In this document: positions 10,015 through 53,724 of the stretch, in pieces
How positions within the stretch are numbered: position 1 is the first letter of the stretch
Layout: every line of letters begins with the position of its first letter
DNA from: Chitinophagales bacterium
GTDB lineage: Bacteria; Bacillota; UBA5301; DYFA01
DNA: 64,000 bases
Reading direction: 5' to 3'
Assembly: GCA_050260095.1 (NCBI GenBank)
Contig: JBLNBQ010000061.1
Coordinates: 7,261-71,260 of the forward strand
The notes under the pieces: model-generated
Told to the model about the DNA's origin: nothing
Databases searched by the model: none
The model's input: the letters and a program-made list of their open reading frames with translations, nothing else
Position numbers and translations under genes: made by a program

Positions 10015-10018
10015 AGGC

Positions 10019-10489: not shown

Positions 10490-10521
10490 GATATCCAGCC
10501 AATCTTGGTTAGTTGTTTGGG

Positions 10522-10551
10522 TTGGTGAGAGCAGGAGTCCACTGGTAAACT
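10522..10551 (+). promoter_or_regulatory. Possible internal promoter (TTGGTG - 18 nt - TGgTAAACT) in the AT-richer fabZ-lpxA intergenic region
   Basis: This 150-nt gap has lower GC than its flanks and contains a -35-like hexamer plus an extended -10. Confidence 0.2.
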
Positions 10552-10639
10552 GATACTGGCCAACAGCGCCGGTCGGATTTGGGCCCCTCCGGCGGATTAC
10601 TGTGTGAGGGCATGAAACGACCTGGGGGAGGAATTCTAG

Positions 10640-11446: not shown

Positions 11447-11594
11447 CCGCCTCAGCCCGGAGCGCCGCCGGAAAGGAAAAACTTCTCTCCGTACAGAATA
11501 ACGGAGGGGTTACAGCGGCCACCACGCCACGCGGCTCGACGCTGGCCTGGTGGCTGTTCTCTTTTAGCTGGCGGGACGGCTTGCCCGCAAGACG

Positions 11595-13555: not shown

Positions 13556-14805
13556 ACACGCTCGACATGGTGCTGACCGCCAACAGTCCGGGAGAGGTGG
13601 CCGGCTGGGTGAAACCGGCCGCGCCCGCCCTCAAAGAGGCCCTGCCCGGCGCCCGGGTGACGGTCTTCGTCCCGCCGTGCACGTTCGCCAGCGGGTGCGA
13701 ACTGGAGGTCGTCCGGGGGCTGGCAGGCGTCGACGCCGCCTTCGGCCCGGCCGATTTCCTCCGCTACGCCCTGCTCGGAATCGCGCCGGCCGGCTTTCGC
13801 CCGGGACGGCGAGGGGCGGTCCTCTTCCTCGGGGGCGACCTCGCCAACGCGGTGCTCCTGCGCAAGCGCCTGGGTTACCCGGCCGTGGCTTACACGGAAG
13901 GCTTCGTCAACTGGAGCGATTCCTTCGCGCGCTTCGCGGTGCCTTATGCCGCCACGCGGGCCAAGGTTTTGGCCAAGGGGGTGCCCGAGGGGAAGGCGGT
14001 GGTCGTGGGCAACCTGATGCTCGACGCCGTCGTTCCCGTCCGGTCGCCGCAGGAGGTGCGGGAGTCTTTGGACGCCGCTTCCGCCTCCGCCGAACTGGTC
14101 CTGCTCCTGCCGGGGAGCCGGCCGGCCGAGGTGGCGCTGGCTACCCCGCTCTTGGTGCGGGCAGCTGAGCTTCTGCACGCGGCGCGGCCGCAGGCCCGGT
14201 TCGTGCTGAGCCTCTCCCCGTTCGCCCGCCCGGCCCAACTGGCGGAGGCCCTGAGCGGCCGGTACGCGGCGGAGTGGGGCGCCCGGGGCAGCATGGCCCC
14301 CGACGGCGCCCTGATGGCGGGCGACTGCCGCATTCCGGTGCGCCAGGGGGAGCAGTACGACCTGATGGCCGCCGCCGACCTGGCCCTGACCATCCCCGGG
14401 ACCAACACGGCGGAACTGGCTTTTCTGGGCGTCCCGATGGTGGTCGCCCTGCCGCTCAACCACCCGGAGCTGATCCCGGTCGAGGGGCTGGCCGGGCTCA
14501 TCGGGAACCTGCCGCAGGTGGGGAAGGCGTTGAAGCGCCGGCTCATCCCCCGCCTCGCCCAGCGCATCCCGTTCGCCGCCTGGCCGAACCAGCTGGCCGG
14601 CGCATACCTCGTGCCGGAGCTGCGCGGGCAGTTGAGCGCCGCGCAGGTGGCCGAGGAGAGCGAACGCCTGCTGTCCGATCCGGGCCGGCGGGCCGCCATG
14701 GCCTGCGAGCTGCGGCGGGTCATGGGGGAGCCGGGGGCGGCCGGGCGCCTGGCTCGCCTGGTGGCCGAGGTGGTCGCCGAGACGTACGGGGGAGGTGAAG
14801 CCTGA
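13552..14805 (+). CDS. LpxB-like glycosyltransferase (second GT19 family member)
   Basis: LLLPGSRPAEV and IPGTNTAELAFLGVPMVVALP motifs (GT19 C-domain). GTGA overlap with lpxB. The N-terminal part of track ORF 13303 is not real. Confidence 0.55.
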   Translation: MNTLDMVLTANSPGEVAGWVKPAAPALKEALPGARVTVFVPPCTFASGCELEVVRGLAGVDAAFGPADFLRYALLGIAPAGFRPGRRGAVLFLGGDLANAVLLRKRLGYPAVAYTEGFVNWSDSFARFAVPYAATRAKVLAKGVPEGKAVVVGNLMLDAVVPVRSPQEVRESLDAASASAELVLLLPGSRPAEVALATPLLVRAAELLHAARPQARFVLSLSPFARPAQLAEALSGRYAAEWGARGSMAPDGALMAGDCRIPVRQGEQYDLMAAADLALTIPGTNTAELAFLGVPMVVALPLNHPELIPVEGLAGLIGNLPQVGKALKRRLIPRLAQRIPFAAWPNQLAGAYLVPELRGQLSAAQVAEESERLLSDPGRRAAMACELRRVMGEPGAAGRLARLVAEVVAETYGGGEA

Positions 14806-34255: not shown

Positions 34256-35197
34256 ATGTCCACAAAGCCGTTCCTGAGCTGGGACAGGCCCGCCGCTGCC
34301 TTGCTGGCGGCCGTGCTGGTGCTGGTCAACGCCCTGCCTGTTGGCGCCTGGGAGATCTCTTCGGGTCCCTTGGCGGGTTTGACCAGCCTCGAGAAGACGG
34401 TCTATGGGCAGGAGGGGACGGGCCCCATCCTCCAGCGCATCGACACGCTTGAGAAAGACGTGCTCGGCGGCAAGCAGGAAGGGCCGATCGTGGCCCGCCT
34501 CGAAAAGCTCAACTCCACCCTGCGCGGCCAGGGCGATTCGCTCCTCTTCCGCCTCAACGCCTTGGAGTGGTATCTCACCCGGACCCTCTCGGCCGGCGCC
34601 CTCAACCCCCGCCTGACCCAGGTGGAACAGTCGTTCTCCGGCCAGGCTGAGACGGGTCCGCTCGGTCCCCGCCTCGACCGCCTGGCGAAACTCGTCTGGC
34701 CCGACGGCAAGGCGGACGGGGGGCAGGTCCAGCTGGAGAAGGGGACGCTCGTCAAGATCAAGCTCGGGACCGAACTGAGTTCCCAGGCCACCAAGGTGGG
34801 GGACAGGGTCAAGTTCCAGGTGGCGCAGGACGTCAAGGTCGACGGGAAGCTGCTCATCCCCGCCGGGCTCGCCGGGGAAGGCCGGGTGACGGAAGTGGTC
34901 GCCGCCGCCAACCTCGGCCGCGACGGGCGGGTCCGCGTCAACTTTGGCACGATCCCCGCGCTCGACGGGCAGCTCTTCCCGATCGAGGTCGACGAGAAGG
35001 CGACCGAGATGAACAAGTCGCTCCAGTTCGCCGCCGGCGCCGCGATGGCCGGGGTCCTGCTTCTGGGGCCGGTCGGGTTGGTCGGCGGGTACTTCGTCAA
35101 GGGCAAGGACGTGGTGATCCCGATCGGCACCGAGTTCTACGTGTCGATCACGGCGTCGTCACTGGTGACCGGGCTCGCGGTCAGCACCACCAAATAG
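34256..35197 (+). CDS. Secreted hypothetical protein with three internal G-P-[IL]-x-x-R-[IL]-[DE]-x-L-[EA]-K repeats and a C-terminal beta-rich domain
   Basis: Signal peptide, repeats (TGPILQRIDTLEKDVLG / EGPIVARLEKLNSTLRG / TGPLGPRLDRLAKLVW), GGGAGGTG RBS. Confidence 0.4.
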   Translation: MSTKPFLSWDRPAAALLAAVLVLVNALPVGAWEISSGPLAGLTSLEKTVYGQEGTGPILQRIDTLEKDVLGGKQEGPIVARLEKLNSTLRGQGDSLLFRLNALEWYLTRTLSAGALNPRLTQVEQSFSGQAETGPLGPRLDRLAKLVWPDGKADGGQVQLEKGTLVKIKLGTELSSQATKVGDRVKFQVAQDVKVDGKLLIPAGLAGEGRVTEVVAAANLGRDGRVRVNFGTIPALDGQLFPIEVDEKATEMNKSLQFAAGAAMAGVLLLGPVGLVGGYFVKGKDVVIPIGTEFYVSITASSLVTGLAVSTTK

Positions 35198-35251
35198 CAC
35201 GCCGGAAAAACTGGCCGGGGCCCAGCTCCATACCCCAAAGCACTCCCAGGC

Positions 35252-35285
35252 GGCCCTTTCCGCAAGCCGGAAGGGGCCTTTCTCT
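35252..35285 (+). terminator. Intrinsic terminator
   Basis: GGCCCTTTCCG-caagc-CGGAAGGGGCC stem followed by TTTCTCT. Confidence 0.4.
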
Positions 35286-35395
35286 GGGCCGGCATGGGAA
35301 TCTCCCCTGCGATTCCTGGCAGGAGAGGGAATAGCGGAAGCCGTACTTAGCAGAGAACACCTGCCTTGAGGGGCGAGGAACAGGGGAGGAGGAGC

Positions 35396-37024
35396 ATGAG
35401 CGTGCGCCGGGGGAGACTTGCCAACCGGTCCTTACTGCCAGGCCTGTTCGCCCTGGCGCTGTTCCTGCTGCCCTTAAGCGGCCCGGCCCGCGCCGCCGCG
35501 GCCGACTTCCAGCTCTCCGCCGACAGTATCGAGCACGACCTGGGCGCCGGGATCGTCACGGCGTCTGGCGGCGTCAGAGTCCAGCTCGCAGAGATGGAAG
35601 CGCGCGGAAACCTCCTGCGCGCAGACCTGAGCACCCATATACTCTCCATGGAGGGTCCAGTCCTCGTCGCCACCCCCTCCGGCGCGGTGCAGGGGGAGGA
35701 TCTGCGCTACGCCTGGGATCAGCGAACCGGCAGCCTACGAAACGCTCAGTTCGCCAGCGAGGGCGTGAGGTTCAGCGGGGGGGAGGCTGAGTTCGCTGCC
35801 AGTAGCTGGACCTTGCACGATGGCCTGCTCACGAAGTGCGTCTATCCCACGCCGGAGTACGCGCTGCAAGCCAGGGAGATTGCCGTCGACCCCGAGCGGC
35901 AGGTCGCCTACATCCGGGGCGGGCGCCTCGCCTTGTTCGGACACACCATCCTCCCGCTGCCGAATCTGCGCCTCTCGCTCCAGGATACGGAGATCGGCCG
36001 GCTCAGCCGGGGCAATCTCCCGGTGCCGGAGACGGGCTACGATTCCGAGCGCGGCTACTTCCTGGCGCAACGACAGCCGCTCTACCTCTCCGACACCACC
36101 TTCGTCCTGGCGCAGGCTGGGTACGGTTCCGAAGAGGGAGCGCGCCTCGGTCTCTCCGGCCTCTATACGCCTTCTTCTGCCGCCGCCTACCGCTGGGATC
36201 TCGTGTACCAGCAGCGCCCGCCCGTGGCCGACGGCCTGATCCGGGCCGAGGCTGCGCCGGCAATCCACGGGACGGCGGAGTACGAACTCAAAGACGCCGC
36301 CGGCCGGCTCAAGCTCGGCGTCGAGAAGAAAGACGACGAGGCCCGGCGCGACCTCACCTTCCTACCCCGGGTCGAGGTGTCCCCCCGCCCCGTGACCGTG
36401 GCCGGCGTCACGCTCGTGCCCACCTTAGAATGGGCCAATATCCAGGAGGAAGCCAGTGGACAGGCGGCGACGCGCACCCTGGCCGGCCTCTCCTGGTCGG
36501 CTGCGCCGCGGCTCAGCTTGCCGTTCGCCCTGACCTTCTCCGGCGCCGAGAAGCAGACTTGGTACGGCACGGGCGAGGCGCTGACCACCCGCGTCCTCTC
36601 GGGCGCCGTCACCCAGCCGCTCACCGAGGCGCTGCGACTCCAAACCGGCGTGAACGTCCGGCAGTATACCGGCCGGACTCCGTTCGTCTTCGACCAGCCA
36701 GACCGTTACTCCGAAGGCGAGGTGGGGCTAGCCTGGCAATCGGGGGGCAACACGCTTTATGGCGCCGCCGCCTACGACTTGGCCGGGTGGGGAACCGCCG
36801 ACGGCACCCGCGCCTTGCCGGGGCAACCCGCCGCACTCAAAGCCAGCGCCATCCTGGCCTCGGAAGGCTGGCGCGCCAGCGCTGAGGTCCGGTACGAACT
36901 GGGCGAGAAACCGCACTACTCGACTGCTGAACTTGAGCTCACTCGGGTGCTCCACTGCTTCGAGGTGACGCTGAGTGCGGAGCCAGTCGAGAAGAAGATC
37001 GCTTTTGAAGTGAGTTTCCGTTAG
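35396..37024 (+). CDS. Second, shorter LptD-like outer-membrane protein (OstA-like N-domain plus beta-barrel)
   Basis: Strong RBS AGGGGAGGAGGAG, signal peptide ...LLPLSGPARAAAA. TKCVYPTPEYALQAREIAVDPERQVAYIRGGRLALFGHTILPLPNL parallels the LptD motif TTCDLPDPHYHLEAREIVIH...LVTLPYLAIPL of the 1817 gene. Ends ...FEVSFR. Confidence 0.5.
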   Translation: MSVRRGRLANRSLLPGLFALALFLLPLSGPARAAAADFQLSADSIEHDLGAGIVTASGGVRVQLAEMEARGNLLRADLSTHILSMEGPVLVATPSGAVQGEDLRYAWDQRTGSLRNAQFASEGVRFSGGEAEFAASSWTLHDGLLTKCVYPTPEYALQAREIAVDPERQVAYIRGGRLALFGHTILPLPNLRLSLQDTEIGRLSRGNLPVPETGYDSERGYFLAQRQPLYLSDTTFVLAQAGYGSEEGARLGLSGLYTPSSAAAYRWDLVYQQRPPVADGLIRAEAAPAIHGTAEYELKDAAGRLKLGVEKKDDEARRDLTFLPRVEVSPRPVTVAGVTLVPTLEWANIQEEASGQAATRTLAGLSWSAAPRLSLPFALTFSGAEKQTWYGTGEALTTRVLSGAVTQPLTEALRLQTGVNVRQYTGRTPFVFDQPDRYSEGEVGLAWQSGGNTLYGAAAYDLAGWGTADGTRALPGQPAALKASAILASEGWRASAEVRYELGEKPHYSTAELELTRVLHCFEVTLSAEPVEKKIAFEVSFR

Positions 37025-37174
37025 AACATCGCGCAGCCCTCGCGCCGTTCCTTATCGCGGGTTCATCCCTGGCGGCACAGATTCCCTGGCGAATGGTGCT
37101 TGCCACTCGCAAGAGGTGAGCCTCCGGGTGCAGGCGAACTAACGAGTGAAATGCCGAGGAAAGGCAGGAGCGGA

Positions 37175-38365
37175 ATGAACGGGGAACGGACGACCAGTCG
37201 CCAGCCAGCCCAGACCGGCTGGCTGGTTGCAGGGGCGTTGGTGCCTTTCGGAAATGCGTCGCTTGGCCTTCTCCTTTCCCTGGGCGGGTTGGCCGCGGCG
37301 CTTGCCAGAGGGCGACTGCGCTGGAAGATGGCAGACCCTGTGTATGGGCTTTTTCTGGCGCTTCTGGGATGCCTGGCGTTGAGTGCAGCGTTCTCTCCCG
37401 TGCGCGGTGTGGCTGCAGCCCTCTCAACTGGCTACGCCCTGCTGATGGGAGGATACGTCTTCGCAGCTCAGGGCAGCGATCCTGTCTGGATCCGGCGCAG
37501 GTTCGTTCCTACCCTGATGGTAGCCAGCTCAATCTCCTACGCCTTCGCCATCGGCCGGGCTCTGATCACTGACTCCCGGCGGGCAGGCACCCTTGGCAGT
37601 GGAGCCAATGGTTACGGAACGCTGATCATCCTGTGCAGCGGAGTGGCGCTCGGGTACTTGTTGAGCCGCGACGAGCGGCGGCGCTGGCCGGCGCTGGTCG
37701 CGTACGTCGCAGTTGCATCGGTTGCCTTGGCTTTCACACTCTCCCGCGGTGCTTGGCTGGGATTCTTCACGATGCTGGTTGTCCTTGCCCTGTGGAACCC
37801 CCAGTTTCGTCGCTGGCTCTGGCTTGGACTCCTGCCGTTGGCAGTTGCTTTCACGGCCATCCCACGGCTGGCGCCTCGGTTGCTCAGCATTTTCACGGCG
37901 GAAGCCTATTTGTCCCGGGTTTACATCTGGCGCTCGGCCTGGCGGATGATCCAGGACCATCCGCTCACCGGCGTGGGCGCTGGAGTCTTTATGCACGTCT
38001 ACGGGGCGTACGTTCAACCGGGCGCCAGCGAGCAGAGCGTCGCCTACGCTCACAACCTCTTCCTGCAGGTCTGGGCGGAATTTGGACTCATCGGATTCGT
38101 CATCTTCCTGGCCATCTTGGGCCGGGTGCTTTACATGTCCTTCCGTCTCGCCCGCACAGGCGACTCTCTCTACCAGGGTATCTTCGCCGCCTTTCTGGGG
38201 GTGCTCGTTCACCAGCAGGTTGACATCCCTATCTGGGGTATTGAAGTCGGCGGAGCGTTTTGGCTGCTGGTCGGTCTCACAATCAGCTTGTACGTGCACG
38301 AAATGGGGAAAGCGCAAAATGAAGCGGTGCGTGGTCACTGGTGGGGCGGAGTTCATCGGGTCTAG
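37175..38365 (+). CDS. O-antigen ligase/polymerase-family (Wzy_C/WaaL-like) membrane protein
   Basis: About 10 TM segments and the periplasmic loop with AHNLFLQVWAEFGLIG typical of the O-antigen ligase domain. Starts are possible at 37100, 37151 and 37175. Confidence 0.55.
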   Translation: MNGERTTSRQPAQTGWLVAGALVPFGNASLGLLLSLGGLAAALARGRLRWKMADPVYGLFLALLGCLALSAAFSPVRGVAAALSTGYALLMGGYVFAAQGSDPVWIRRRFVPTLMVASSISYAFAIGRALITDSRRAGTLGSGANGYGTLIILCSGVALGYLLSRDERRRWPALVAYVAVASVALAFTLSRGAWLGFFTMLVVLALWNPQFRRWLWLGLLPLAVAFTAIPRLAPRLLSIFTAEAYLSRVYIWRSAWRMIQDHPLTGVGAGVFMHVYGAYVQPGASEQSVAYAHNLFLQVWAEFGLIGFVIFLAILGRVLYMSFRLARTGDSLYQGIFAAFLGVLVHQQVDIPIWGIEVGGAFWLLVGLTISLYVHEMGKAQNEAVRGHWWGGVHRV

Positions 38366-39295
38366 CCTCACCCGCCGGCTGGTCGCCGAGGGTGTTCGGG
38401 TGAGGGTCGTAGACAACCTCTCCACGAGGTCCCTGGCGAACCTGGCCCGCTTGGAACAGGCGGTCGACTTCGTGGAGGGTGACGTCCGGGACAGTGAGCT
38501 TCTGCGGGAGGCTTGCCGCGGTGCGGAAGTTGTCTTCCACCAGGCGGGCATCGCCTCGGTGCAAGCGTCGGTGGAGGATCCGGCGGGCTGCCACGCCGTG
38601 AACGTGGGAGGCACGCTCAACGTCCTCCTGGCGGCCCGGGAGGCGAGGGCACGGCGGGTCGTCTTCGCCTCGTCTTCCTCGGTCTACGGCGACGCGTCCA
38701 CTCTCCCCTTGCGCGAAGAGACGCCGCCACGGCCCTTGTCGCCCTATGCGGCGACCAAACGCTGCGGCGAAGACTACTGCCGGGTCTTCTCAGAGTTATT
38801 CGGCCTGGACACGGTGGCCCTGCGCTACTTCAACGTCTTCGGTCCCCGTCACAACCCGGCCGCCGAGCACGCGGCGGTGATCCCAAAGTTCGTCTTGGCC
38901 GCCTTTCGGGGCGAGAACCGGTCATCCACGGCGACGGAGAACAGTCGCGGGACTTCGTCTTCGTCGAGGATGTAGTCCAGGCGAACCTGCTTGCCGCTCG
39001 GCGGGAGGAACCACTCGGCGGACAAGCCTTGAACGTGGGCACCGGGACTGTGACGAGTCTAAACGGTCTGATTCAAGCGCTGAGTTTGGCACTCGGCCGG
39101 CCTGTTCGCGCTCGTCACGCTGCCCCGCGCCAGGGCGATATCAGACACTCCATGGCCGACCCATCCCGCGCCCGCCAAGCGCTGGGATTTGCCGCGGGTC
39201 ATTCGTTCAGTGAGGGGCTGCGCCTGACCGTCGACTGGTACGCCCGGCAGGTGTTGGGCAGGGCGGACGCCGAGGTGGCGGCAGCCGGGGAGTGA
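38319..39295 (+). pseudogene. NAD-dependent sugar epimerase/dehydratase (UDP-glucose-4-epimerase/WbpP-like) with an apparent frameshift near 38913
   Basis: MKRCVVTGGAEFIGS Rossmann N-terminus and YAATK catalytic motif in frame a up to ...AAFRGE. The conserved PVIHGDGEQSRDFVFVEDVV... continues in frame b to 39295. Confidence 0.6.
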
Positions 39296-39311: not shown

Positions 39312-39340
39312 TTGACACCCCCGTTCCTGTGTGCTATCAT
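39312..39340 (+). promoter_or_regulatory. Sigma-70/SigA-type promoter: TTGACA - 17 nt - TATCAT
   Basis: Perfect -35, 17-nt spacer, -10 TATCAT, about 27 nt upstream of the SAM riboswitch. Confidence 0.5.
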
Positions 39341-39366: not shown

Positions 39367-39475
39367 GACTCATCATGAGCGGCGGAGGGAACGGCCCGAT
39401 GAAGCCCGGCAACCAGGCGGCGGCGCCCAGGTGCCAAGTCCGACAGAATGCCAATTCTGGAAGATGAGACGAGAC
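39367..39475 (+). promoter_or_regulatory. SAM-I (S-box) riboswitch aptamer in the metK leader
   Basis: P1 CTCATC...GATGAG. Conserved GAGGGA, GGCCCGATGAAGCCCGGCAACC, GGTGCCAAGTCC, AGATGAG boxes in the canonical order. Confidence 0.8.
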
Positions 39476-39480
39476 TTCAC

Positions 39481-39514
39481 GCCTCTTCCGAATTGGAGGG
39501 GGCGTAACTTTTTG
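39481..39514 (+). terminator. Riboswitch expression-platform terminator
   Basis: GCCTCTTCC-gaatt-GGAGGGGGC stem followed by GTAACTTTTTG. Confidence 0.5.
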
Positions 39515-39570
39515 TCCCCGTCCTGTTCACCGTGGACCAGGGTAACGCTACGCAGTGGGAGGCTTGCCGC

Positions 39571-40875
39571 ATGTGTCAGGAAGACCGTCTGAACCGCAAC
39601 TTCCTCTTCACCTCGGAGTCGGTGACCGAGGGACATCCCGATAAGATCTGCGATCAGATCTCCGACGCCATCCTCGACGCCATCTTCGAGAAGGACCCCA
39701 ACGCCCGAGTGGCGTGTGAGACCACCGTCACGACCGGGCTCGTGCTCGTGGCGGGCGAGATCTCCTGCGCGTGCTACGTGGATATCCCGGCGCTGGTCCG
39801 CCAGACCATCCGCGACATCGGCTACACCCGGGCCAAGTTCGGCTTCGACGGCGACACCTGCGCGGTGCTGACCGCCATCGACGAGCAGTCGCCCGACATC
39901 GCCCAGGGCGTCAACCAGGCGCTGGAGGTGCGCGGCACCGGCGACACCGATGCCTTCGACGCCATCGGCGCGGGCGACCAGGGCCTCATGTTCGGGTTCG
40001 CCTGCGACGAGACCCCCGAGTTGATGCCGCTGCCGATCTCCTTGGCTCACCAGTTGGCCCGGCGCCTCACCGAAGTCCGCAAGGAGCGGGAGGTCACCTA
40101 CCTGCGGCCCGATGGCAAGACCCAGGTCACGGTGGAATACAGGGAAGACCGTCCCGTTCGGGTCGATACGATCGTCATCTCGACCCAGCATCACCCCGAG
40201 GTCAGCCGGGAAACCATCGAGCAGGACCTGATCGAGAAGGTCATCAAGCCCGTGGTGCCCGCCAAGTACCTCGATGAGCAGACCAAGATCCTCATCAACC
40301 CGTCGGGCCGGTTCGTGGTGGGCGGCCCCCAGGGCGACACGGGGCTCACGGGCCGGAAGATCATCGTCGACACCTACGGCGGCTACGCCCGGCACGGCGG
40401 CGGCGCCTTCTCTGGCAAGGATCCCACGAAGGTGGACCGGTCGGCGGCCTACGCGTTGCGCTATGTTGCCAAGAACGTGGTGGCGGCTGGGCTGGCCGAC
40501 AAGTGCGAGGTCCAGGCGGCCTACGCCATCGGCGTTGCCCACCCGGTCTCCATCATGGTCGACACCTTCGGCACCGGGCGGATTCCCGACGATGCCATCG
40601 CCACGCTCGTCCGGCGCATCTTCGACCTGCGCCCGGCCGCCATCATCGACCACTTCCAGCTGCGCCGGCCGATCTACCGGCAACTGGCGGCCTACGGTCA
40701 CTTCGGCCGGACCGACCTCGACCTGCCGTGGGAGAAGACCGACAAGGTGGCCGAGCTGAAGGCGGGCGCCGAGGAGTTCGTCCGGCACGGTCACGTGCAC
40801 GTGCACGCGCACGAGCACACCCATACTCACACCCACGAGCACGGCGACGACCACGATCACCCGCACGAGCACTGA
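39571..40875 (+). CDS. metK: S-adenosylmethionine synthetase with a His-rich C-terminal tail
   Basis: [57 protein letters not shown]. The C-terminus [31 protein letters not shown] is about 40 aa longer than typical MetK. Confidence 0.9.
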
Positions 40876-42766: not shown

Positions 42767-42839
42767 GCCGTTTCCTCTCCGCAGGAGATATCCCCCTCGA
42801 CACGAAGTAATGTTATCCTGGAGGAAAGGCCAAGGGGGT

Positions 42840-43910
42840 ATGGCGGTGAAGGGTCTCATCTTGGCCGGGGGCAAGGGCACCCGGCTGCGTCCCATCACGC
42901 ACACCAGCGCGAAGCAGCTGGTGCCGGTGGCGAACAAGCCCATCCTTTTCTATGCGATCGAGACGCTCAAGGAAGCGGGCGTCGACGACATCGGGATGAT
43001 CATCGGCGATACGGGTGCGGAGGTCAGGGCAGCCGTGGGCGACGGCTCCCGCTGGGGAGTGCGCATCACCTACATCCCGCAGGAGGCGCCGCTGGGCCTG
43101 GCCCACGCCGTGCAGACCGCCAGGGACTTTCTCTACCCCGACCCGTTCGTCATGTTCCTGGGCGACAACCTCATCAAGGGCGGGGTGGTCTCGTTCACGG
43201 AACGGTTCCGGGCGACCCACCCCAACGCCCTCATCCTGCTGACGCACGTGCCCAACCCCCAGGAGTTCGGGGTGGCCGAACTGGTCGACGGCCGGGTGGT
43301 GAACCTGGTTGAGAAGCCGAAGGAGCCCAAGAGTGACCTGGCGCTGGTCGGGGTCTACCTCTTCGACCACCACATCTTCGAAGCCATCGCCCATATCAAG
43401 CCCTCGTGGCGGGGCGAGCTGGAGATCACCGATGCCATCCAGTGGCTGGTTCAAAACGGCTATGCCGTCGAGCCCCACCTGGTCGAGGGCTGGTGGAAGG
43501 ACACGGGGAAGCTCGGCGACCTGCTCGAGGCGAACCGCCTCATCCTGGAGGATATTGCACCCGAGGTCAAGGGCAAAGTGGGAGAGGGAGCCCGGATCGA
43601 AGGCCGCGTCGCGGTGGCGGAGGGCGCCGAGATCGTCGACTCCGTGGTGCGGGGGCCGGCCGTGATCGGCCCGGGGGCCCGGGTGAAGGGTTCCTTCATC
43701 GGTCCGTTCACCTCGGTGGGAGCGGACGTGACGATCGAGAACAGCGAGGTGGAGCACTCCATCATCCTCGCCGGCAGCACCGTGGCCGACCTGGGCGGGC
43801 GCCTGGTCGACTCCTTGATCGGCAAGAACGTCGAGATCCGGAGAGCCGAGGCCAAGCCGCGGGCGTACCGGATGATGGTCGGCGACAACTCGCAGGTTGG
43901 GGTGGTCTAG
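42840..43910 (+). CDS. rmlA: Glucose-1-phosphate thymidylyltransferase (long form)
   Basis: GLILAGGKGTRLRPITHTSAKQLVPVANKP, C-terminal beta-helix domain, AAGGGGGT RBS. Confidence 0.8.
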   Translation: MAVKGLILAGGKGTRLRPITHTSAKQLVPVANKPILFYAIETLKEAGVDDIGMIIGDTGAEVRAAVGDGSRWGVRITYIPQEAPLGLAHAVQTARDFLYPDPFVMFLGDNLIKGGVVSFTERFRATHPNALILLTHVPNPQEFGVAELVDGRVVNLVEKPKEPKSDLALVGVYLFDHHIFEAIAHIKPSWRGELEITDAIQWLVQNGYAVEPHLVEGWWKDTGKLGDLLEANRLILEDIAPEVKGKVGEGARIEGRVAVAEGAEIVDSVVRGPAVIGPGARVKGSFIGPFTSVGADVTIENSEVEHSIILAGSTVADLGGRLVDSLIGKNVEIRRAEAKPRAYRMMVGDNSQVGVV

Positions 43911-43946
43911 CGCTTAGGGCGCGCACGGTCAGAGAGGAGCCGGAAG

Positions 43947-44417
43947 ATGGGCAACAAGCGGCTGATCGACGGGGTCAAGGTCAAGCCCCTAAAGGTCATC
44001 CCCGACGAGCGGGGGCGGCTCATGGAGATGCTGCGGGCCGACGACGAGATCTTCGAGCAGTTCGGCCAGGTCTACCTCACCACCGCCTACCCGGGCGTGG
44101 TCAAGGCCTGGCACTACCACAAGAAGCAGGCCGATCACATGGTGGTCGTCAAGGGGATGATGAAGATCGTCCTCTACGACGACCGGGAGGGCTCGTCGAC
44201 CAGAGGCGAGATCAACGAGTTCTTCCTGGGCGACCACAGCCCCCTCCTGCTCAAGATACCCAAGATGGTATACCACGGCTTCAAGTGCATCAGCGAGACC
44301 GAAGCGATGGTCATCAACGTGCCGACGGAAGTCTACAACTACCAGGAACCCGACGAATACCGGATCGACCCGCACGCAGGGGGCATCCCGTACGACTGGG
44401 CCAGGAAGGACGGTTAG
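43947..44417 (+). CDS. rmlC: dTDP-4-dehydrorhamnose 3,5-epimerase-family cupin (short form)
   Basis: Cupin fold, sits in the rml operon between rmlA and rmlB. Confidence 0.6.
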   Translation: MGNKRLIDGVKVKPLKVIPDERGRLMEMLRADDEIFEQFGQVYLTTAYPGVVKAWHYHKKQADHMVVVKGMMKIVLYDDREGSSTRGEINEFFLGDHSPLLLKIPKMVYHGFKCISETEAMVINVPTEVYNYQEPDEYRIDPHAGGIPYDWARKDG

Positions 44418-44420
44418 GCG

Positions 44421-45431
44421 ATGGAGTTCCGCCGTATCCTCGTCACCGGGGGAGCCGGTTTCATCGGGAGCAACTTCATCCACCACTGGTTGGCGGCGCA
44501 CGAGGGCGAGGTGGTCAACCTCGATCTGTTGACCTACGCCGGGAACCTGGAGAACCTGGCGGCGGTGCAGGACAATCCCCGCTACCGGTTCGTACGGGGA
44601 GACATCGCCGACCGTGAACTGGTGGACCAGGTGCTCGACGGGGTGGACGCGGTGGTCAACTTCGCCGCCGAGTCGCACGTCGACCGTTCCATCCACGATG
44701 CCGGCGCCTTCATCCGCACCAACGTCGGCGGAACCCAGGCGCTGCTCGAGGCGGCCCGTCACCGGGGCGTGAAGCGTTTCCTGCAGGTGTCGACCGATGA
44801 GGTCTACGGCTCGCTGGGGCCGGAGGGGCGCTTCACCGAGGAAAGCCCGCTTCAGCCCAACAGTCCGTATTCGGCCAGCAAGGCCTCGGCCGACCTGCTG
44901 GCGCGGGCCTACCATCACACGTTCGGGCTCGACGTGGTCGTCACTCGGTGTTCGAACAACTACGGGCCTTACCAGTTCCCGGAGAAGCTGATTCCGCTCA
45001 TGGTGACCAACGCCATGGAGAACAAGGAGTTGCCGGTGTACGGCGACGGGCTCAACGTGCGGGACTGGATCCACGTGGCCGACCACTGCCGGGCGATCGA
45101 CGTGGCCCTGACGCGGGGAAAAGCCGGGGAGGTCTACAACATCGGGGCCGGCGAAGAACACACCAACCTCGAACTGGTGCGCAGCATCCTGCGCCTCTTG
45201 GGGAAGCCGGAGACCTTGATCAAGTACGTCAAGGACCGCCCGGGCCACGACCGCCGCTACGCGATCGATCCGGCCAAAGCCCGGCGGGAACTGGGCTGGG
45301 CCCCGCAGGTCGACTTCGCCCGGGGCCTCGCCGACACGGTGAACTGGTACGTGACGAACCGCGCGTGGTGGGAGAAGATCAAGTCCGGCGCGTACCGGGA
45401 TTACTACGCCGCCATGTACGGCGCCCGGTAA
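44421..45431 (+). CDS. rmlB: dTDP-glucose 4,6-dehydratase
   Basis: ILVTGGAGFIGSNF, YSASKASADLL, RCSNNYGPYQFPEKLIP. Confidence 0.9.
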   Translation: MEFRRILVTGGAGFIGSNFIHHWLAAHEGEVVNLDLLTYAGNLENLAAVQDNPRYRFVRGDIADRELVDQVLDGVDAVVNFAAESHVDRSIHDAGAFIRTNVGGTQALLEAARHRGVKRFLQVSTDEVYGSLGPEGRFTEESPLQPNSPYSASKASADLLARAYHHTFGLDVVVTRCSNNYGPYQFPEKLIPLMVTNAMENKELPVYGDGLNVRDWIHVADHCRAIDVALTRGKAGEVYNIGAGEEHTNLELVRSILRLLGKPETLIKYVKDRPGHDRRYAIDPAKARRELGWAPQVDFARGLADTVNWYVTNRAWWEKIKSGAYRDYYAAMYGAR

Positions 45432-45443
45432 GGAGTGGTGGAG

Positions 45444-46331
45444 ATGGCCAGGACGGCCAAGCGAGTGCTGATCACCGGCGCCTGGGGGCAGCTCGGCCAG
45501 GACCTGATGCGCGCTTTCAGCGACGCCACGGTGCTCGGCGTCGGTTCGGTGGAGATGGACATCACCAACGCGGAACACACCAGGCAGGCCATCGCAGAGT
45601 GGCGGCCCGACCTCGTCATCCACTCGGCGGCCTACACCGACGTCGACGGGTGCGAGGCCGACCCCGACCGGGCGTTCAGGGTCAACGCGCTGGGGACGCG
45701 CAACGTGGCGCTCGGGTGCCAGGCTGCCGAGGCAGCCCTGGTCTACGTCTCGACAGATTACGTCTTCGACGGGCGCCGGGTGGGCGTTCCCTACACCGAA
45801 TACGACGCGGTGAGCCCGCTCTCCGTCTACGGACGCTCGAAACTGGCGGGGGAGGAGTACGTCCAGCGCCTCTTGGACCGCTACTTCATCGTGCGTACCT
45901 CGTGGCTCCACGGCCTTTCCGGGAAGAACTTCCTGCGGACCATCCTCTCCTGGGCGAAGCAGGGCAGGGAGCTCACCGTCGTCGACGACCAGGTCGGGTC
46001 GCCGACCTTCACCTTCGACCTCGCCCCGGCCATCCGAAGACTGGCCGAGACGGGGCAGTACGGCCTCTACCACGTCACCAACGCAGGCTCCTGCTCGTGG
46101 CACGCGCTCGCCCAAGAGGCGCTGGGCCTCTTCGCCGGCCGGTGCCCCGAGGTGGCGAAGGTGTCTCTCCGGCCCATCACGACGGAACAAATCGGGCGTC
46201 CGGCGCCGCGCCCCTTCTATTCCGTGTTGCGCAACTACAACCTGGAACTGGCGGGCTTGCCCCGCTTAAGACCCTACCAGGAAGCCCTGCGCGAGTTCAT
46301 CCAGGCCTTGGAACTCGAGCAGGCTGGGTAG
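45444..46331 (+). CDS. rmlD: dTDP-4-dehydrorhamnose reductase
   Basis: VLITGAWGQLG, TDYVFDG, SVYGRSKLAGE. ATG 45444 with an AAGGAG RBS. Confidence 0.85.
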   Translation: MARTAKRVLITGAWGQLGQDLMRAFSDATVLGVGSVEMDITNAEHTRQAIAEWRPDLVIHSAAYTDVDGCEADPDRAFRVNALGTRNVALGCQAAEAALVYVSTDYVFDGRRVGVPYTEYDAVSPLSVYGRSKLAGEEYVQRLLDRYFIVRTSWLHGLSGKNFLRTILSWAKQGRELTVVDDQVGSPTFTFDLAPAIRRLAETGQYGLYHVTNAGSCSWHALAQEALGLFAGRCPEVAKVSLRPITTEQIGRPAPRPFYSVLRNYNLELAGLPRLRPYQEALREFIQALELEQAG

Positions 46332-46349
46332 GACACGGAGGCTGTTGCA

Positions 46350-47471
46350 GTGGCGGGAAAAACCATCCTCATCCTGAGCACCTCTTTCGGCGCCGGGCAT
46401 GTGCGGGCTGCCGAGGCGCTGCGCGACGCCTGCCGGGAGATCGATCCGAAGGGCCGGGTTGAGATCATCGACTTCCTGCGGACGTTCAACAAATACCTCT
46501 CCCGGGTGGCGGAAGAGGCGTACTACGCCATGACCAAACACACGCCCCGGGTCTACAAGTTCTTCTACGAGGTCGAATCCCGGCCGGCCTCGCGGCTCAA
46601 ATCGGTGGAGTCGCGCCTCGGGCGGGGCATGTTGCTGCGGATCATCGACGAGATCAAACCCGACTGCGTCATCTCGACCCACTTCCTCCCGGCGGGGGTC
46701 ATGGATCGCCTCGGTGAGCGGGTCCAGATCCCACAGGGCGTGGTCCTGACCGACTACGAATCGCACCCGATGTGGCTTTATCCGGGAGCCGACGCCTTCT
46801 TCATCGCCCACCCGGGCATGCGGCGGGAACTGATTTCGAGCGGCGTGGACCCAGCCAAGATCCACGTGACCGGCATCCCGATCAAGGCGGAGTTTTCGCA
46901 GGAGCATGACCGGGAGGCCCTGCGGCGGCGGCTCCTCGCCCGGACCGACCTGCCGGTGGTGCTGGTGACGAGTGGCGGGCGGGGCATCGGGCCGCTCATG
47001 GAGGTCCTGGAAGCGCTTGACCGGGTCGAGGTGCCGGTGCAGGTCGCGGTGGTGTCCGGCCGGAACCCGGTGCTGGCCCGCCGGTTGCAGGAGTTCTCCC
47101 GGGGGCTGCGCGTGCCCACGCAGATTCTGGGCTTCGTCAACAACATCCACGAGTGGATGTCGATCGCCGAGGTCATGATCGGCAAGGCGGGGGGGCTCTC
47201 CGTCTCGGAAGCCATCGCCGCCGGGTTGCCGATGGTGATCGTCGCACCGACGCCTGGCCAGGAGGAAGGCAATACGAACTACCTCACCTGGCACGGGGCG
47301 GCGATCCACGTGGCCGAGTTGGAAGACCTCGGCCCCGCGCTCAACCTGCTCCTCTCCACGCCTGAGCGCCTGTCCGACATGCGCCGGGCCGCCCACCGGA
47401 TCGCCCGGCCGAGCGCGGCCCGGGAGGTCGTCCAGACGATGCTGCGGCTCGTCGACGAGCGGCGGGGCTGA
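46350..47471 (+). CDS. UgtP/MGDG-synthase-like glycosyltransferase (GT28 family, diacylglycerol glycosyltransferase)
   Basis: MGDG_synth-like N-domain (ILILSTSFGAGHVRAAEAL) plus GT-B C-domain (GKAGGLSVSEAIAAGLPMVI). Confidence 0.6.
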   Translation: MAGKTILILSTSFGAGHVRAAEALRDACREIDPKGRVEIIDFLRTFNKYLSRVAEEAYYAMTKHTPRVYKFFYEVESRPASRLKSVESRLGRGMLLRIIDEIKPDCVISTHFLPAGVMDRLGERVQIPQGVVLTDYESHPMWLYPGADAFFIAHPGMRRELISSGVDPAKIHVTGIPIKAEFSQEHDREALRRRLLARTDLPVVLVTSGGRGIGPLMEVLEALDRVEVPVQVAVVSGRNPVLARRLQEFSRGLRVPTQILGFVNNIHEWMSIAEVMIGKAGGLSVSEAIAAGLPMVIVAPTPGQEEGNTNYLTWHGAAIHVAELEDLGPALNLLLSTPERLSDMRRAAHRIARPSAAREVVQTMLRLVDERRG

Positions 47472-47594
47472 GCGCGCCACCCTCCTGCCACCATGCAAGG
47501 TTCCTCCAGTGGAGGAATCTTTTATTCTCCGCCGAAAGACAAGCAATCGAGGAATTCTTCTACTTTCCGGTTCGACGGGAAAGGGCGGACGCCG

Positions 47595-48797
47595 ATGCAG
47601 GACCCGGTCGCGGTGCCGCAACCCGGCGGACGGCTGGCCGCGGGTACCAACGGACCCCTGATGCTCGAACGGATCGACGCCGTGATGCACGAGACGGTGG
47701 CGGCGGTTCAGCATGGGAAAGAGAAGATCTTCCAGGTGGGGGATCTGGCGCGGGAAGAACACGCGCGGCTCTCGCAGGACCTGGAAGCTCTCAGAAATGA
47801 ACTCGCCCATCGCACGGTCCACATCGCCGAGTTGGAGCAGAGGGCCCGGCAGGCCCGCACCAGCTTGGCGGAGATCAGCCGCGATTTCAACCACGCCAGC
47901 GAGGAGAGCATCCGCCGCGCCTACGCGACCGCCGAACAGGCCCAGGTCGACCTGTCGGTCGCGCAGGCCCAGGTGGCTGACTTGGTCCGGCGCCGGCAAG
48001 ACCTTGAGGCGCAGCGCCAACGGGTCGCCAACATGATGAGCAAAGCCGAGGAATTGACGACCGCCGTCGGGCTGGCCATCGAGTTCCTCACCGGCCGGAT
48101 TGCCGGGCAGTCATCCACGCTGAGGTATCGCACCAGCGGCATCGGCACGCAGGTCATCAAGGCCCAGGAAGAAGAGCGGCGGCGCATCGCCCGGGAGATT
48201 CACGACGGTCCGGCGCAAGCCATGGCGAACATCGTCCTGCGCGCCGAAATCTGCGAGAAGACCATGGATACCGGCAAGGGCGACCTCAAGGTCGAACTTG
48301 CCGATCTGAAGCGGCTGGCCAAGGACTGCCTGAAGGAGGTCCGCCGGATCATCTTCGACCTGCGCCCCATGACCCTCGACGACCTGGGGCTGGCGCCCAC
48401 CCTCACCCGCTACTGCGAGGAACTCGCCAAACAGGTTCCTTTCCAGATCCGCTTCGTCGTCTACGGCAAGGAGCGGCGCCTCGACGCCGGCGTCGAAGCC
48501 GCCCTGTTCCGCCTCGTCCAGGAGGCCCTCACCAACGCCCGCAAGTATGCGAAGCCCCTCAAGGTGGAGGTCAAGGTCGAGTTCCTCCCGGGCCTGATCC
48601 GCGCCGTGGTCGAGGACGACGGCGTGGGGTTCGACCCGGCCGACCTCCAGCGTCTCCAGGGCAAGAAGGACGAGCACTTCGGGCTGCTAGGCATGCGGGA
48701 GCGGGTGCAGCTCTTCGATGGTGAGCTGACGGTGACCTCGGCGCCGGGCAAGGGGACCACCGTGGTGGCCCAGATCCCGGTGGAAGGGGGGCGTTGA
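47595..48797 (+). CDS. DegS-like cytoplasmic sensor histidine kinase (HisKA_3 + HATPase)
   Basis: DegS sensor-like N-domain (EKIFQVGDLAREEHARL...ISRDFNHASEESIRRAYATAEQAQ), H-box RIAREIHDGPAQAMANI, no TM. ATG 47493 is an alternative start. Confidence 0.7.
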   Translation: MQDPVAVPQPGGRLAAGTNGPLMLERIDAVMHETVAAVQHGKEKIFQVGDLAREEHARLSQDLEALRNELAHRTVHIAELEQRARQARTSLAEISRDFNHASEESIRRAYATAEQAQVDLSVAQAQVADLVRRRQDLEAQRQRVANMMSKAEELTTAVGLAIEFLTGRIAGQSSTLRYRTSGIGTQVIKAQEEERRRIAREIHDGPAQAMANIVLRAEICEKTMDTGKGDLKVELADLKRLAKDCLKEVRRIIFDLRPMTLDDLGLAPTLTRYCEELAKQVPFQIRFVVYGKERRLDAGVEAALFRLVQEALTNARKYAKPLKVEVKVEFLPGLIRAVVEDDGVGFDPADLQRLQGKKDEHFGLLGMRERVQLFDGELTVTSAPGKGTTVVAQIPVEGGR

Positions 48798-48800
48798 GCG

Positions 48801-49472
48801 TTGGCCGGGCACAAGGTGCGCATCCTCGTGGCCGATGACCACGCGCTGATCCGGGAAGGACTCCGCAAGATCCTCGAGTTCGAGGAAGACCTTGAAGTGG
48901 TCGGCGAGAGCGGCGATGGCCCCTCCACCTTGGAACGGGCCCGGCAACTCAAGCCCGACGTGGTGACCCTCGACGTGAGCATGCCCGGGATGAGCGGGCT
49001 GGACGTGGCGCGCGCCCTGCACGAGGAGTTGCCGGGGGTCAAGGTCATCATCCTGACCGTTCACAACGACCAAGACTGCCTGCTGGCGGCGGTCCGCTCG
49101 GGAGGACAGGCCTACCTGCTGAAGGATTCGGAACCGGCGAAGCTCATCGAGGCCATCCGGACCGTCTACCGCGGCGGCACCTTCTTCCCGCCGGAACTCG
49201 TTGGCCACCTCGTCCAGGGCTATCAGAAGGCGACGAGTGAAGTCGCAGCGGCCGGGGAAGCGCTCTCCCGCATCCGCAGCCAGCTGACCGAGCGTGAGAT
49301 CGAAATCCTCAAGCTGATCGCCCGGGGGGCGAACAACCGGGAGATCGCTGACGAGCTGGTCATCTCCGAGAAGACCGTCAAGAACCACGTCAGCAGCATC
49401 CTTCACAAGCTGGAACTCGACGATCGGACCAAGGCCGCGGTCTTCGCCCTCAAGCACCGTCTGGTTGACTGA
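48801..49472 (+). CDS. DegU-like response regulator (REC + LuxR HTH)
   Basis: VRILVADDHALIREG, C-terminal LTEREIEILKLIARGANNREIADELVISEKTVKNHVSSILHKL. Confidence 0.75.
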   Translation: MAGHKVRILVADDHALIREGLRKILEFEEDLEVVGESGDGPSTLERARQLKPDVVTLDVSMPGMSGLDVARALHEELPGVKVIILTVHNDQDCLLAAVRSGGQAYLLKDSEPAKLIEAIRTVYRGGTFFPPELVGHLVQGYQKATSEVAAAGEALSRIRSQLTEREIEILKLIARGANNREIADELVISEKTVKNHVSSILHKLELDDRTKAAVFALKHRLVD

Positions 49473-52104: not shown

Positions 52105-53724
52105 ATGCCAGGAAGGCGCATGACGGAATGGTCCAAGGCACTTCGCGGCCGCCCGGCGGCCGTTCTGCTTCTCCTGGCGCTCAGTATGGCAATGGCTGGA
52201 TGCGGCGGAGGTCCCACCGCCGGTTCGGGAACCACCGGCCGGCTGACCGGAAAGGTGACGGTCAGCACGCCCGACGGGCCGGCCCTGGCGGCGAGCGTCA
52301 AGGTCGACGGCACGGTGTACCAGGCGGTGGGCGGGACCTACCTCACCAACTACCTCGCCTACGGCACGCACACGATCACCGTCGGCGCCCCCGGCTATCA
52401 GACCCAGACGAGCGGCGTCAACCTGGCCCAGGCTTATTTGCGGCTCGACTTCGCCTTGAGCCAGGTGCCCGACACGACGGCGCCCACACTTGCCGGGACC
52501 ATGCCCGAGGCGGGGACCACCGGCGTGGACCGCAACACCAAGATCGTGATCACTTTCAGTGAACCCATGAACCAGACCACTGTGACCTCCGCCTTAAGCC
52601 TCTCGCCCGCCGTCCCGCTGCTTTTCAGCTGGGAGGACGACAGTCACCTGACGGTCACCCTCGGCCGGACGCTGGCGGCCGACACCGTCTACACCGTGAC
52701 CGTCGGCCCGGGCGCGCGGGACCGCGCCGGCAACGCGCTGGCGAACCCGGGAAGCTTCAGCTTCACCACCGGGACGGCGGTGGGCGGCGACGGGCGGATC
52801 GCCTTCACCAGCGACAAGACGCACCTGAACAAGGTCTACCTGATGCCGGATCAGCCGTTGGCGGCGGCCACCCCGCTGCTGCCCGACCAGAAAGAGGACC
52901 AGGAACCGGCCTGGTCGCCCGATGGCGTCCGGCTTGTCTTCACCTCCCGGCGCGGCAACCCCTTGGTCACGCAGTTGTTCGTGACCCGGCTCGACACGCC
53001 CAGCCCGGCGCAGGTCATCCCCGGGAGCGTCTATCAGGAGGCGGAGCCGAAGTGGTCGCCGCTGGGCGGGTGGATCGCCTTCAGTTCCATCCGCAACCAG
53101 GTCGAGGGCGACTGGGACATCTTCATCGTGCCCGTGGACGAGCGGGGGGTGGCCACCGGCAGCCCCCGGCAGGTGAACAAGGATCCGGGCGGAATCTATG
53201 GAACGTCCTGGGAGGCGGCGCCCGAGTGGTCGCCCGACGGCACGGTGCTCCTCTTCTCGTCGGACCGGACCGGGAAGCGGCTGATTTACGGCGTGGACGT
53301 GCAGGACCAGGGCGGGAAGGTCGGGGAAACCGCCGGGCTGACAGCCACCTGCCTCACCCCCGACGGCGAGCGGGAAGATGAGCCGGCCTGGTCGCCGGTG
53401 CCCTCGCCCGACGGCACTTGGCGGGTGGCGTACGTCTCCGAGCGCGGCGATACGCCCAACTGGGATCTCTGGCTCATGGACGTCGCCGTCTCCACCGACG
53501 CGGGAGGACACCGCGTGGTGACCGCCCGCGGCCACCGCCAGTTGACCAACTCGCCGGCCAACGAACACAAGCCGGTCTGGTCGCCCGATGGGAACTACAT
53601 CCTGTTCGTCTCGGAAGACGTGACCGGAACGCACCTGCATCGCATAGGCGCTGACGGCACCGGCGAAATCTCGTTCACCACCGGGTTCGCCAAAGAGGGC
53701 GGCCCCGCCTGGTCGTCGCGGTAG
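52105..53724 (+). CDS. Lipoprotein with carboxypeptidase-regulatory-like and Ig-like domains plus a TolB-like (PD40) beta-propeller
   Basis: Lipobox LSMAMAG-C, DTTAPTL...ITFSEPM Ig-like segment, at least 5 repeats of ...PAWSPDG.../EPKWSP/APEWSPDG/KPVWSPDG typical of TolB-like propellers. Confidence 0.55.
   Translation: MPGRRMTEWSKALRGRPAAVLLLLALSMAMAGCGGGPTAGSGTTGRLTGKVTVSTPDGPALAASVKVDGTVYQAVGGTYLTNYLAYGTHTITVGAPGYQTQTSGVNLAQAYLRLDFALSQVPDTTAPTLAGTMPEAGTTGVDRNTKIVITFSEPMNQTTVTSALSLSPAVPLLFSWEDDSHLTVTLGRTLAADTVYTVTVGPGARDRAGNALANPGSFSFTTGTAVGGDGRIAFTSDKTHLNKVYLMPDQPLAAATPLLPDQKEDQEPAWSPDGVRLVFTSRRGNPLVTQLFVTRLDTPSPAQVIPGSVYQEAEPKWSPLGGWIAFSSIRNQVEGDWDIFIVPVDERGVATGSPRQVNKDPGGIYGTSWEAAPEWSPDGTVLLFSSDRTGKRLIYGVDVQDQGGKVGETAGLTATCLTPDGEREDEPAWSPVPSPDGTWRVAYVSERGDTPNWDLWLMDVAVSTDAGGHRVVTARGHRQLTNSPANEHKPVWSPDGNYILFVSEDVTGTHLHRIGADGTGEISFTTGFAKEGGPAWSSR

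Follow-up and report, generated by a model that had tools for sequence, protein, structure and literature searches.

We analysed a window of 64,000 nucleotides from contig JBLNBQ010000061.1 and found that it encodes, besides a long LptD-like protein in an lpt operon, a second and compact LptD-like outer-membrane protein (positions 35396 to 37024). By analogy with known systems, the compact protein would work as an LptE-independent lipopolysaccharide (LPS) translocon of the diderm-Firmicute type, a reading to which we assign a probability of about 0.6. A compact and a long LptD-like protein together with an upstream partner of unknown function have already been described in other two-membraned Firmicutes, and the window is a further example. 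As a genome feature, the compact LptD belongs to a known kind of system in diderm Firmicutes and will not surprise the specialist. How LPS is inserted without LptE outside the Proteobacteria is still poorly understood, and the locus adds a high-GC lineage, with relatives labelled Limnochordia, to the two published cases from Negativicutes. The pair of compact and long LptD and the upstream companion are conserved across a wide distance in both sequence and GC content. The companion is the more interesting part of the locus and the most promising lead: in its structural model, a predicted VirB10-like domain is combined with a predicted glycine zipper, which is the first structural handle on this protein, and it may play an accessory role.

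The window has a GC content of about 67% and carries nearly all of its genes on the forward strand. The original prediction, made from the letters of the window, had proposed a gene for 552 amino acids (aa) with a strong ribosome-binding site. The open reading frame (ORF) is real, but its ATG start gives 542 aa, and the longer product applies only if translation begins at an upstream TTG (35366). The ribosome-binding site was found just 5' of the ATG at 35396. The N-terminus of the protein (MSVRRGRLANRSLLPGLFALALFLLPLSGPARA) resembles a signal peptide, and the GC content at the three codon positions (0.69/0.52/0.83) is similar to that of neighbouring real genes. The protein consists of a signal peptide (residues ~1–33), a beta-jellyroll (~38–180), a junction/beta1 motif (146–230) and a beta-barrel (~205–542). 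The LptD-type motif at the junction of jellyroll and barrel, which had been pointed out before, is present at residues 146–190 (TKCVYPTPEYALQAREIAVDPE...ILPLPNL). In the alignment of the six members of the compact family, T146, K147, C148, P151–A156 and P187–P189 are invariant. A full HMMER scan of 1.84 billion representative sequences yielded 2064 relatives at E≤1e-3, of which 424 reach E≤1e-10, and further counts refer to a sample of 74 more distant relatives. In this sample, T146, C148 and P153 reach a conservation of at least 90%, and the same holds for both of the exactly two cysteines of the compact protein, C148 and C521. The LptD of Escherichia coli has an inter-domain disulfide between C173 and C725. 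The C148/C521 pair resembles this disulfide, and a corresponding bond may form in the compact protein.

Searches of Pfam and NCBIfam with the single sequence gave almost nothing, and thus family profiles were needed. With the single sequence, the NCBIfam model for LptD (PRK03761) reached a sub-threshold match to residues 146–240 (E 0.0056). When the profile of the six-member compact family was compared to all PDB sequences, the top match was an LptD (8h1r, E 2.8e-4), with an alignment over residues 44–198 that comprises the jellyroll and the T-x-C...P-x-P-x-Y junction. An N-terminal jellyroll of the OstA/LptA type is thus found both by this match and in the structural model. The family PF03968 (LptD_N) matches 43 of the 74 relatives but not the compact protein of the window, and DUF3769 matches 15 of them. 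A Foldseek search with the model of the compact protein returned LptD structures only at ranks 1 to 31 (E 2e-14 to 3e-4). Furthermore, the compact family aligns with the family of the long paralogue over residues 34–542 (hhalign, 98% probability, E 1.4e-13). The matches to PRK03761 and 8h1r, the structural search and the alignment of the two families support the earlier description of the protein as a second, compact LptD-like copy. That the protein is unrelated to LptD, being a generic porin-like barrel whose motif is similar by chance, is hardly credible, as the profile match to LptD spans jellyroll as well as junction, all of the top 31 structural matches are LptDs, the paralogy with the operon LptD runs from end to end, and LptD_N is detected in more than half of the 74 relatives.

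The count of barrel strands, which had been proposed as a check, gave a reduced barrel. The AlphaFold2 model (predicted local distance difference test, pLDDT, 69.9) has a jellyroll of 12 strands at residues 39–179 and then 19 long strands, so that the barrel has ~18–20 strands when the unmodelled beta1 is considered, fewer than the 26 strands of LptD. In the profile–profile alignment, the long paralogue has ~214 extra columns, all of them within the barrel, which fits ~18–20 strands in the compact and ~26 in the long copy. The earlier estimate that the compact protein is about 240 aa shorter than the first LptD also held, since the long copy is 238–248 aa longer if it is read through. The best structural matches are the LptD/LptE structures of E. 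coli, Shigella and Klebsiella. The compact protein shares with proteobacterial LptD the N-terminal jellyroll, the T-x-C...P-x-P-x-Y junction followed by a barrel start of the form P-x-x-G-Y-(D/S)-S-x-x-G, and one cysteine each near the end of the jellyroll and near the C-terminus. In contrast to these proteins, it is ~240 aa shorter, has roughly 6–8 fewer strands and only one cysteine pair, does not match PF04453, and is accompanied by no LptE in the window.

The lengths of the relatives are bimodal, with classes of 425–550 aa and 675–775 aa, of which the compact class dominates. When 174 relatives were scored with both profiles, the compact profile was better for 99 (88 of them shorter than 600 aa) and the long profile for 75 (49 with at least 600 aa). 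Solved LptDs are matched by the compact profile only, whereas the long profile finds nothing among PDB sequences even at E≤10. The source names of the relatives are Bacillota/Firmicutes, Limnochordales, Halanaerobaculum and Armatimonadota; no Negativicutes are among the source names obtained. The compact form of LptD is typical of two-membraned Firmicutes and is also present in metagenome-assembled genomes (MAGs) labelled Armatimonadota.

Compact LptDs have a short history in the literature on diderm Firmicutes, where Antunes et al. (2016) did not find LptD (PMC5007114). A study from 2026 described two LptD-like proteins in Acetonema longum (PMC13018214). The protein F7NLY8 (480 aa) has a jellyroll and 16 strands, matches LptD hidden Markov models (HMMs) and was detected by proteomics, whereas F7NII2 (729 aa, ~26 strands) has no match to LptD HMMs and was not detected; the authors, who found no LptE, concluded that LptD function lies with the compact copy (PMC13018214). 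The window resembles this case in that a compact and a long LptD-like protein of similar size classes (542 and 790 aa) occur together in a diderm Firmicute, each with LPS genes nearby and without LptE, and here, too, the compact form is the one that profile searches link to solved LptDs. A compact copy that works as LPS translocon agrees with these published data (PMC13018214). With its jellyroll and reduced barrel, the 542-aa protein corresponds to the described type of 480–540 aa, although the count of 16 strands is not exactly reproduced: it is ~60 aa longer than F7NLY8 and has 18–20 strands in a model of moderate confidence. Here, the genomes are high-GC MAGs with relatives labelled Limnochordia/Bacillota, and the two cases are likened by size, architecture and context. 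In addition, the long copy of the window is part of the lpt operon and is interrupted by a stop codon.

A second published case is Veillonella parvula, where Poppleton et al. (2017) found the outer membrane to contain LptD (Vpar_0647), which is encoded outside the diderm cluster (PMC5491611). The V. parvula gene is preceded by the genes of two secreted proteins of unknown function, Vpar_0645 (15 kDa) and Vpar_0646; the synteny of Vpar_0646 and lptD holds in all Negativicutes, and both proteins were suggested as possible LptE equivalents (PMC5491611). In the collection of papers that was searched, we found none that follows up on Vpar_0646. Like the lptD of the Vpar_0645–0646–0647 cluster, the compact lptD of the window lies away from the core lpt and lipid A genes, is preceded by a gene for a conserved secreted protein and has sugar-nucleotide genes downstream. 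In V. parvula, this preceding protein was likewise detected in the outer membrane. A triad on a distant contig (L016; 150, 403 and 536 aa in 3279 bp) agrees in size with the V. parvula cluster (3259 bp), which is circumstantial. Synteny and size are also what suggests homology between the 313-aa companion and Vpar_0646. Unlike V. parvula, the window has no small gene of the Vpar_0645 type, and an OmpM-like barrel gene lies upstream instead. As the companion now has a structural handle, the suggestion of an LptE equivalent made for Veillonella in 2017 becomes directly testable.

Based on the established knowledge on E. coli LptD, we propose the following mechanism for the compact protein. Its jellyroll would join the periplasmic LptC–LptA bridge, which would be powered by LptB (21838–22557) and the LptF/G permeases; LptB would energise the transport to either LptD. 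LPS would then move along the groove of the jellyroll to the junction with the conserved T-x-C...P-x-P motif, with Cys148 probably bridged by a disulfide to Cys521, which lies in the penultimate strand of the barrel. It would leave sideways through the proline-containing seam of beta1 and the last strand of the ~18–20-strand barrel, and this lateral exit would work without an LptE lipoprotein as plug. The compact lptD heads a small LPS-glycan unit with an O-antigen-ligase-like Wzy_C gene and an epimerase gene, and this unit is preceded by the conserved pair of the OmpM-like and the 313-aa gene.

Several observations weigh against the compact protein as LPS translocon. The position in the operon and the translational coupling to lptC belong to the long copy and not to the compact gene; the genomic context by itself would make the long copy the LPS translocon. 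The Pfam search with the compact protein alone found no family at E≤1, including the LptD barrel model PF04453 (LptD/OstA_C). The original prediction was to be given up if this model did not match, and formally this is the outcome. We consider this test too strict because PF04453 also misses the long operon paralogue and its family as well as 73 of the 74 relatives of the compact protein, leaving a match in one. Proteins that do carry PF04453 score higher with the long profile, in a set that was retrieved by a long query and is thus biased. Furthermore, the barrel model of the compact protein is only moderately confident, and its conserved beta1/junction segment (182–223) is poorly modelled (pLDDT <50). 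Finally, a terminator-like hairpin lies between the companion gene and the compact lptD, and in two related loci (L011 and L012) the companion occurs without an LptD-like gene downstream.

In the main rival reading, the two copies divide the labour, with the long 790-aa copy as LPS translocon and the compact copy using the same Lpt bridge for a different lipid-anchored cargo. Candidates for such a cargo are an O-antigen-capped or otherwise glycosylated lipid, another glycolipid, or surface proteins as claimed for the LptD homologue of Borrelia, a precedent that is discussed in PMC11784454. The long copy lies in the order lptF/G-lptD-lptC-lptA and overlaps the start of lptC, whereas the compact copy is always found at the 5' edge of variable polysaccharide clusters (Wzz, Polysacc_synt_2, glycosyltransferases, Wzy_C). 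At the position of the compact LptD, L011 has a Wza-like Poly_export protein followed by Wzz. In addition, both paralogues are kept intact in several genomes, which suggests non-redundant roles. However, it is the compact form that is expressed and detected in A. longum, where it was judged to be the functional LptD (PMC13018214), and the V. parvula LptD lies outside the diderm cluster in a three-gene cluster of ~3.3 kb, which implies a short protein (PMC5491611). Furthermore, no long LptD follows the LptF/G gene of one relative (L015), the window has only one LptB, and the O-antigen ligase acts on lipid A-core, so that an LPS translocon would share the glycan context. We regard such a division of labour as possible but somewhat unlikely.

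The fate of the long lptD is also relevant for the role of the compact protein as LPS translocon. The original prediction had raised the possibility that the compact gene replaces a pseudogenised lptD. The part of this claim that concerns the sequence stands: the reading frame that runs from 1817 to its natural stop codon contains a single further stop, a TAG at 2660–2662, and the compact gene is intact, which speaks weakly for a replacement. In all six aligned homologues the affected position is a lysine, which corresponds to a change from AAG to TAG. If the long lptD is a true pseudogene in this genome, the compact paralogue would now be the only LPS translocon. The NCBI annotation of only a 475-aa C-terminal fragment (P0157) and the strong ribosome-binding site of the intact compact gene would fit such a take-over. 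However, the gene has a single changed codon and no further decay: GC content at third codon positions remains of the coding type in both halves (0.81–0.91), and P0156 aligns with 100% of the read-through protein at 74% identity. Since the epimerase gene of the same window is also frameshifted, a consensus or assembly error is a live explanation, and we consider a consensus error to be as likely as true pseudogenisation of the gene.

The check for co-occurrence that had been proposed found compact and long copies together, and both intact, in related genomes. On a contig from JGI (Ga0484001_0000007), an intact long copy of 767 aa (L009) is followed ~35 kb downstream by the compact copy (L001), and both are also intact in GCA_050260635.1 (long L010, compact L002). 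As these relatives retain both genes, we conclude that the compact gene is a conserved paralogue rather than a by-product of, or a replacement after, decay, and we consider the take-over very unlikely. In a further genome, the long LptD homologue QME79_00345 (P0159) and the companion homologue QME79_00485 (P0178), for each of which 187,517 bp is given as the longest contig, presumably lie on one contig, and we infer that a compact LptD lies beside the latter.

The conserved synteny includes more than the compact gene. The order of OmpM-like barrel gene, gene for ~305–340 aa, compact LptD and polysaccharide genes is kept in L001, L002, L004, L005, L013, L014 and L015, where Wzz, Polysacc_synt_2, aminotransferases, glycosyltransferases and Wzy_C are among the polysaccharide genes, and metK often follows behind these. 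The companion directly adjoins the compact LptD in the window and in L002, L005, L013, L014, L015 and L016, whereas 2–7 unrelated genes lie between the two in L001 and L004. The window thus has the conserved secreted protein that is found upstream in the compact LptD type. In L016 (46% GC), a 403-aa homologue of the companion overlaps the start of the 536-aa LptD-like gene, whose product aligns with the compact LptD over jellyroll and junction (hhalign, 81%, E 1.2e-5). As the pairing is present on this distant contig, it survives large divergence, and the companion precedes the compact LptD in genomes of 46 to 68% GC. In L012, the companion is followed by metabolic genes. In L011 (46.5% GC, 9044–14642), the companion homologue is followed by an 893-aa Poly_export/SLBB (Wza-like) protein and then by Wzz/GNVR, a tyrosine-kinase-like ATPase and CpsB, so that the place of the compact LptD is taken by another type of polysaccharide exporter of the outer membrane. 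The companion always lies directly downstream of a putative outer-membrane barrel gene, and a role that is tied to the OmpM-like protein is thus possible. The barrel gene has a porin or OMP-barrel match in Pfam in most loci, and in L011 and L012 the gene before the companion is unannotated (430–488 aa).

The companion was modelled from an alignment of 48 sequences (pLDDT 81.9). As predicted earlier, it has a signal peptide, modelled as a first helix, and a beta-rich C-terminal domain. The three G-P repeats that had been noted are present, but in the model they are part of a domain of six repeated helices and the count was thus too low. The helices have 13 residues each, a period of ~20 residues (36–153) and the consensus h-x-R-h-x-x-h-E...G. 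The beta domain (155–244 and 293–308) has a beta-barrel fold like that of the VirB10/TrbI C-terminal domain, with a helix and a glycine zipper of low confidence (AAGAAMAGVLLLGPVGLVGG) inserted into it (247–281). This insertion sits at the position of the membrane-spanning antenna in VirB10, TrbI and ComB10 but is a glycine zipper instead of the two-helix antenna. The companion also differs from these proteins in its N-terminal six-repeat helical domain and in having no type IV secretion genes nearby; none were found in any locus examined. Pfam has no match to the companion of the window, including PF03743 (TrbI); among its relatives, PF03743 matches weakly in the L015 orthologue (E 0.0046) and in one precomputed entry (P0208). 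There is no match to PDB sequences. The family comprises 57 clusters, all unannotated, from Bacillota/Limnochordia MAGs.

The companion is not a lipoprotein, as it has no cysteine. A homologue of LptE was considered as its identity and rejected since cysteine and lipobox are lacking, the fold is VirB10-like and no PDB sequence matches. The earlier statement that no LptE-like lipoprotein is evident agrees with a lipobox scan of the window, which gave no LptE-like protein and one credible lipoprotein (a 539-aa ORF at 52105–53724), and with the cysteine-free companion. The terminator-like hairpin that had been described between the companion gene and the compact lptD was found as well. It alone stands out locally, whereas the 198-nt spacer as a whole folds no better than shuffled sequence (z −0.82). 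We conclude that the companion is a conserved associate of compact LptD genes, beyond a mere neighbour, and would most likely act as an outer-membrane accessory factor of the translocon. A wider idea, which we put forward tentatively and consider unlikely, is that, throughout diderm Firmicutes, compact LptDs without an LptE have the 313-aa family (the Vpar_0646 family) as their missing accessory subunit. A glycine-zipper hairpin in or beside the small barrel could then serve as an LptE-like plug or assembly factor, and one Lpt bridge could have two outlets, compact and long LptD, for two different cargoes.

Table 1. Features of the window around the two LptD-like genes.
Feature	Position	Strand	Basis or remark
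LptF/G-family permease, first copy	636–1793		just before long lptD
Long LptD paralogue, 790 aa if read through	1817–4192	+	gene order lptF/G-lptD-lptC-lptA
lptC	4189–4947	+	ATG overlaps stop of long lptD; jellyroll bridge protein
lptA	4944–5627	+	jellyroll bridge protein
LptB	21838–22557	+	TIGR04406, 366 bits (cut-off 240); only ATPase of the window that passes
LptF/G-family permease, second copy	22591–23691	+	
OmpM-like outer-membrane protein, 622 aa	32340–34208	+	matches to Porin_4 and OMP_b-brl
Secreted companion, 313 aa	34256–35197	+	signal peptide, helical repeats, beta domain, no cysteine
Terminator-like hairpin	35252–35278	+	11 bp with 8 G-C pairs, then TTTCTCT; between companion and compact lptD
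Shine-Dalgarno sequence GGGGAGGAGGAG	35383–35394	+	read off the sequence; before ATG 35396
Compact LptD-like outer-membrane protein, 542 aa	35396–37024	+	ORF with ATG start, profile, model, conservation
Wzy_C/O-antigen-ligase-like membrane protein	37100–38365	+	directly 3' of compact lptD
NAD-dependent sugar epimerase/dehydratase	38319–39295	+	frameshift near 38905–38915; last gene of the unit
SAM riboswitch of metK	39367–39470		RF00162, 82.8 bits; end of the compact lptD unit

The other lpt genes of the window lie in two places (Table 1). Two complete and parallel Lpt machines were considered and rejected, since the ATPase at 8292–9170 is not LptB-like (its top matches are to GlnQ-type models and stay below the cut-off). 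As only the ATPase at 21838–22557 passes the LptB model, we read the system as one inner-membrane Lpt engine with two outer-membrane proteins of the LptD type. Between lptA and the ATPase at 8292–9170 lies a gene for an 852-aa protein (5719–8277) without a match in Pfam or NCBIfam, which is conserved in relatives (817–835 aa); together with the ATPase it forms an unexplained conserved pair inside the lpt/lipid A cluster. The second lpt locus (20516–25011) starts with an LptA-like domain at the C-terminal end of the ORF at 20516–21841 and continues with LptB, the second LptF/G permease and a DUF3084 protein (23731–25011). Behind DUF3084, the relatives L011, L012 and L015 have a large SLH protein, then RuvX and the barrel and companion genes. 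In the lineage of the window, the second lpt locus and the block of barrel and companion genes appear to have been separated by an insertion of the atp operon.

The product of the gene upstream of the companion is an OmpM-like tether, with an SLH-like motif at the N-terminus (FTELPAGHWSFAALAGLV), a Pro/Ala-rich linker of ~200 residues and a porin-type barrel at the C-terminus. The SLH family of Pfam has no match in the protein of the window and a weak one in the L015 orthologue. Downstream, no terminator is predicted between the compact lptD and the Wzy_C gene. The epimerase gene is split across two frames ('...FVLAAFRGE', then 'PVIHGDGEQSRDF...') and is the second disrupted gene of the window, which makes consensus errors in the MAG likelier. 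The riboswitch belongs to metK (39532–40875), with a promoter-like site at 39312–39340 and a terminator-like hairpin at 39479–39505. Further glycan genes follow a few kb 3' of the compact lptD unit, as the region 42810–49472 holds genes like those of the dTDP-rhamnose pathway (NTP_transferase, dTDP-sugar isomerase, 4,6-dehydratase and RmlD). These are followed by an MGDG-synthase-like glycosyltransferase and a two-component system of the DegS/DegU type.

Lastly, we compared the source labels of related MAGs. The closest ones (P0001, P0006, L006 and L008) carry mutually contradictory labels, namely Chitinophagales, Betaproteobacteria, Aneurinibacillus and Bacteroidota, whereas the names Bacillota, Limnochordia or Limnochordales are attached to more distant homologues. 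In its gene content, with an OmpM-like protein, LpxI and no LptE found, the window is typical of published diderm Firmicutes. Given the conflict among the closest labels, the labels of the more distant homologues and this gene content, the taxonomy assigned by the submitters looks wrong.

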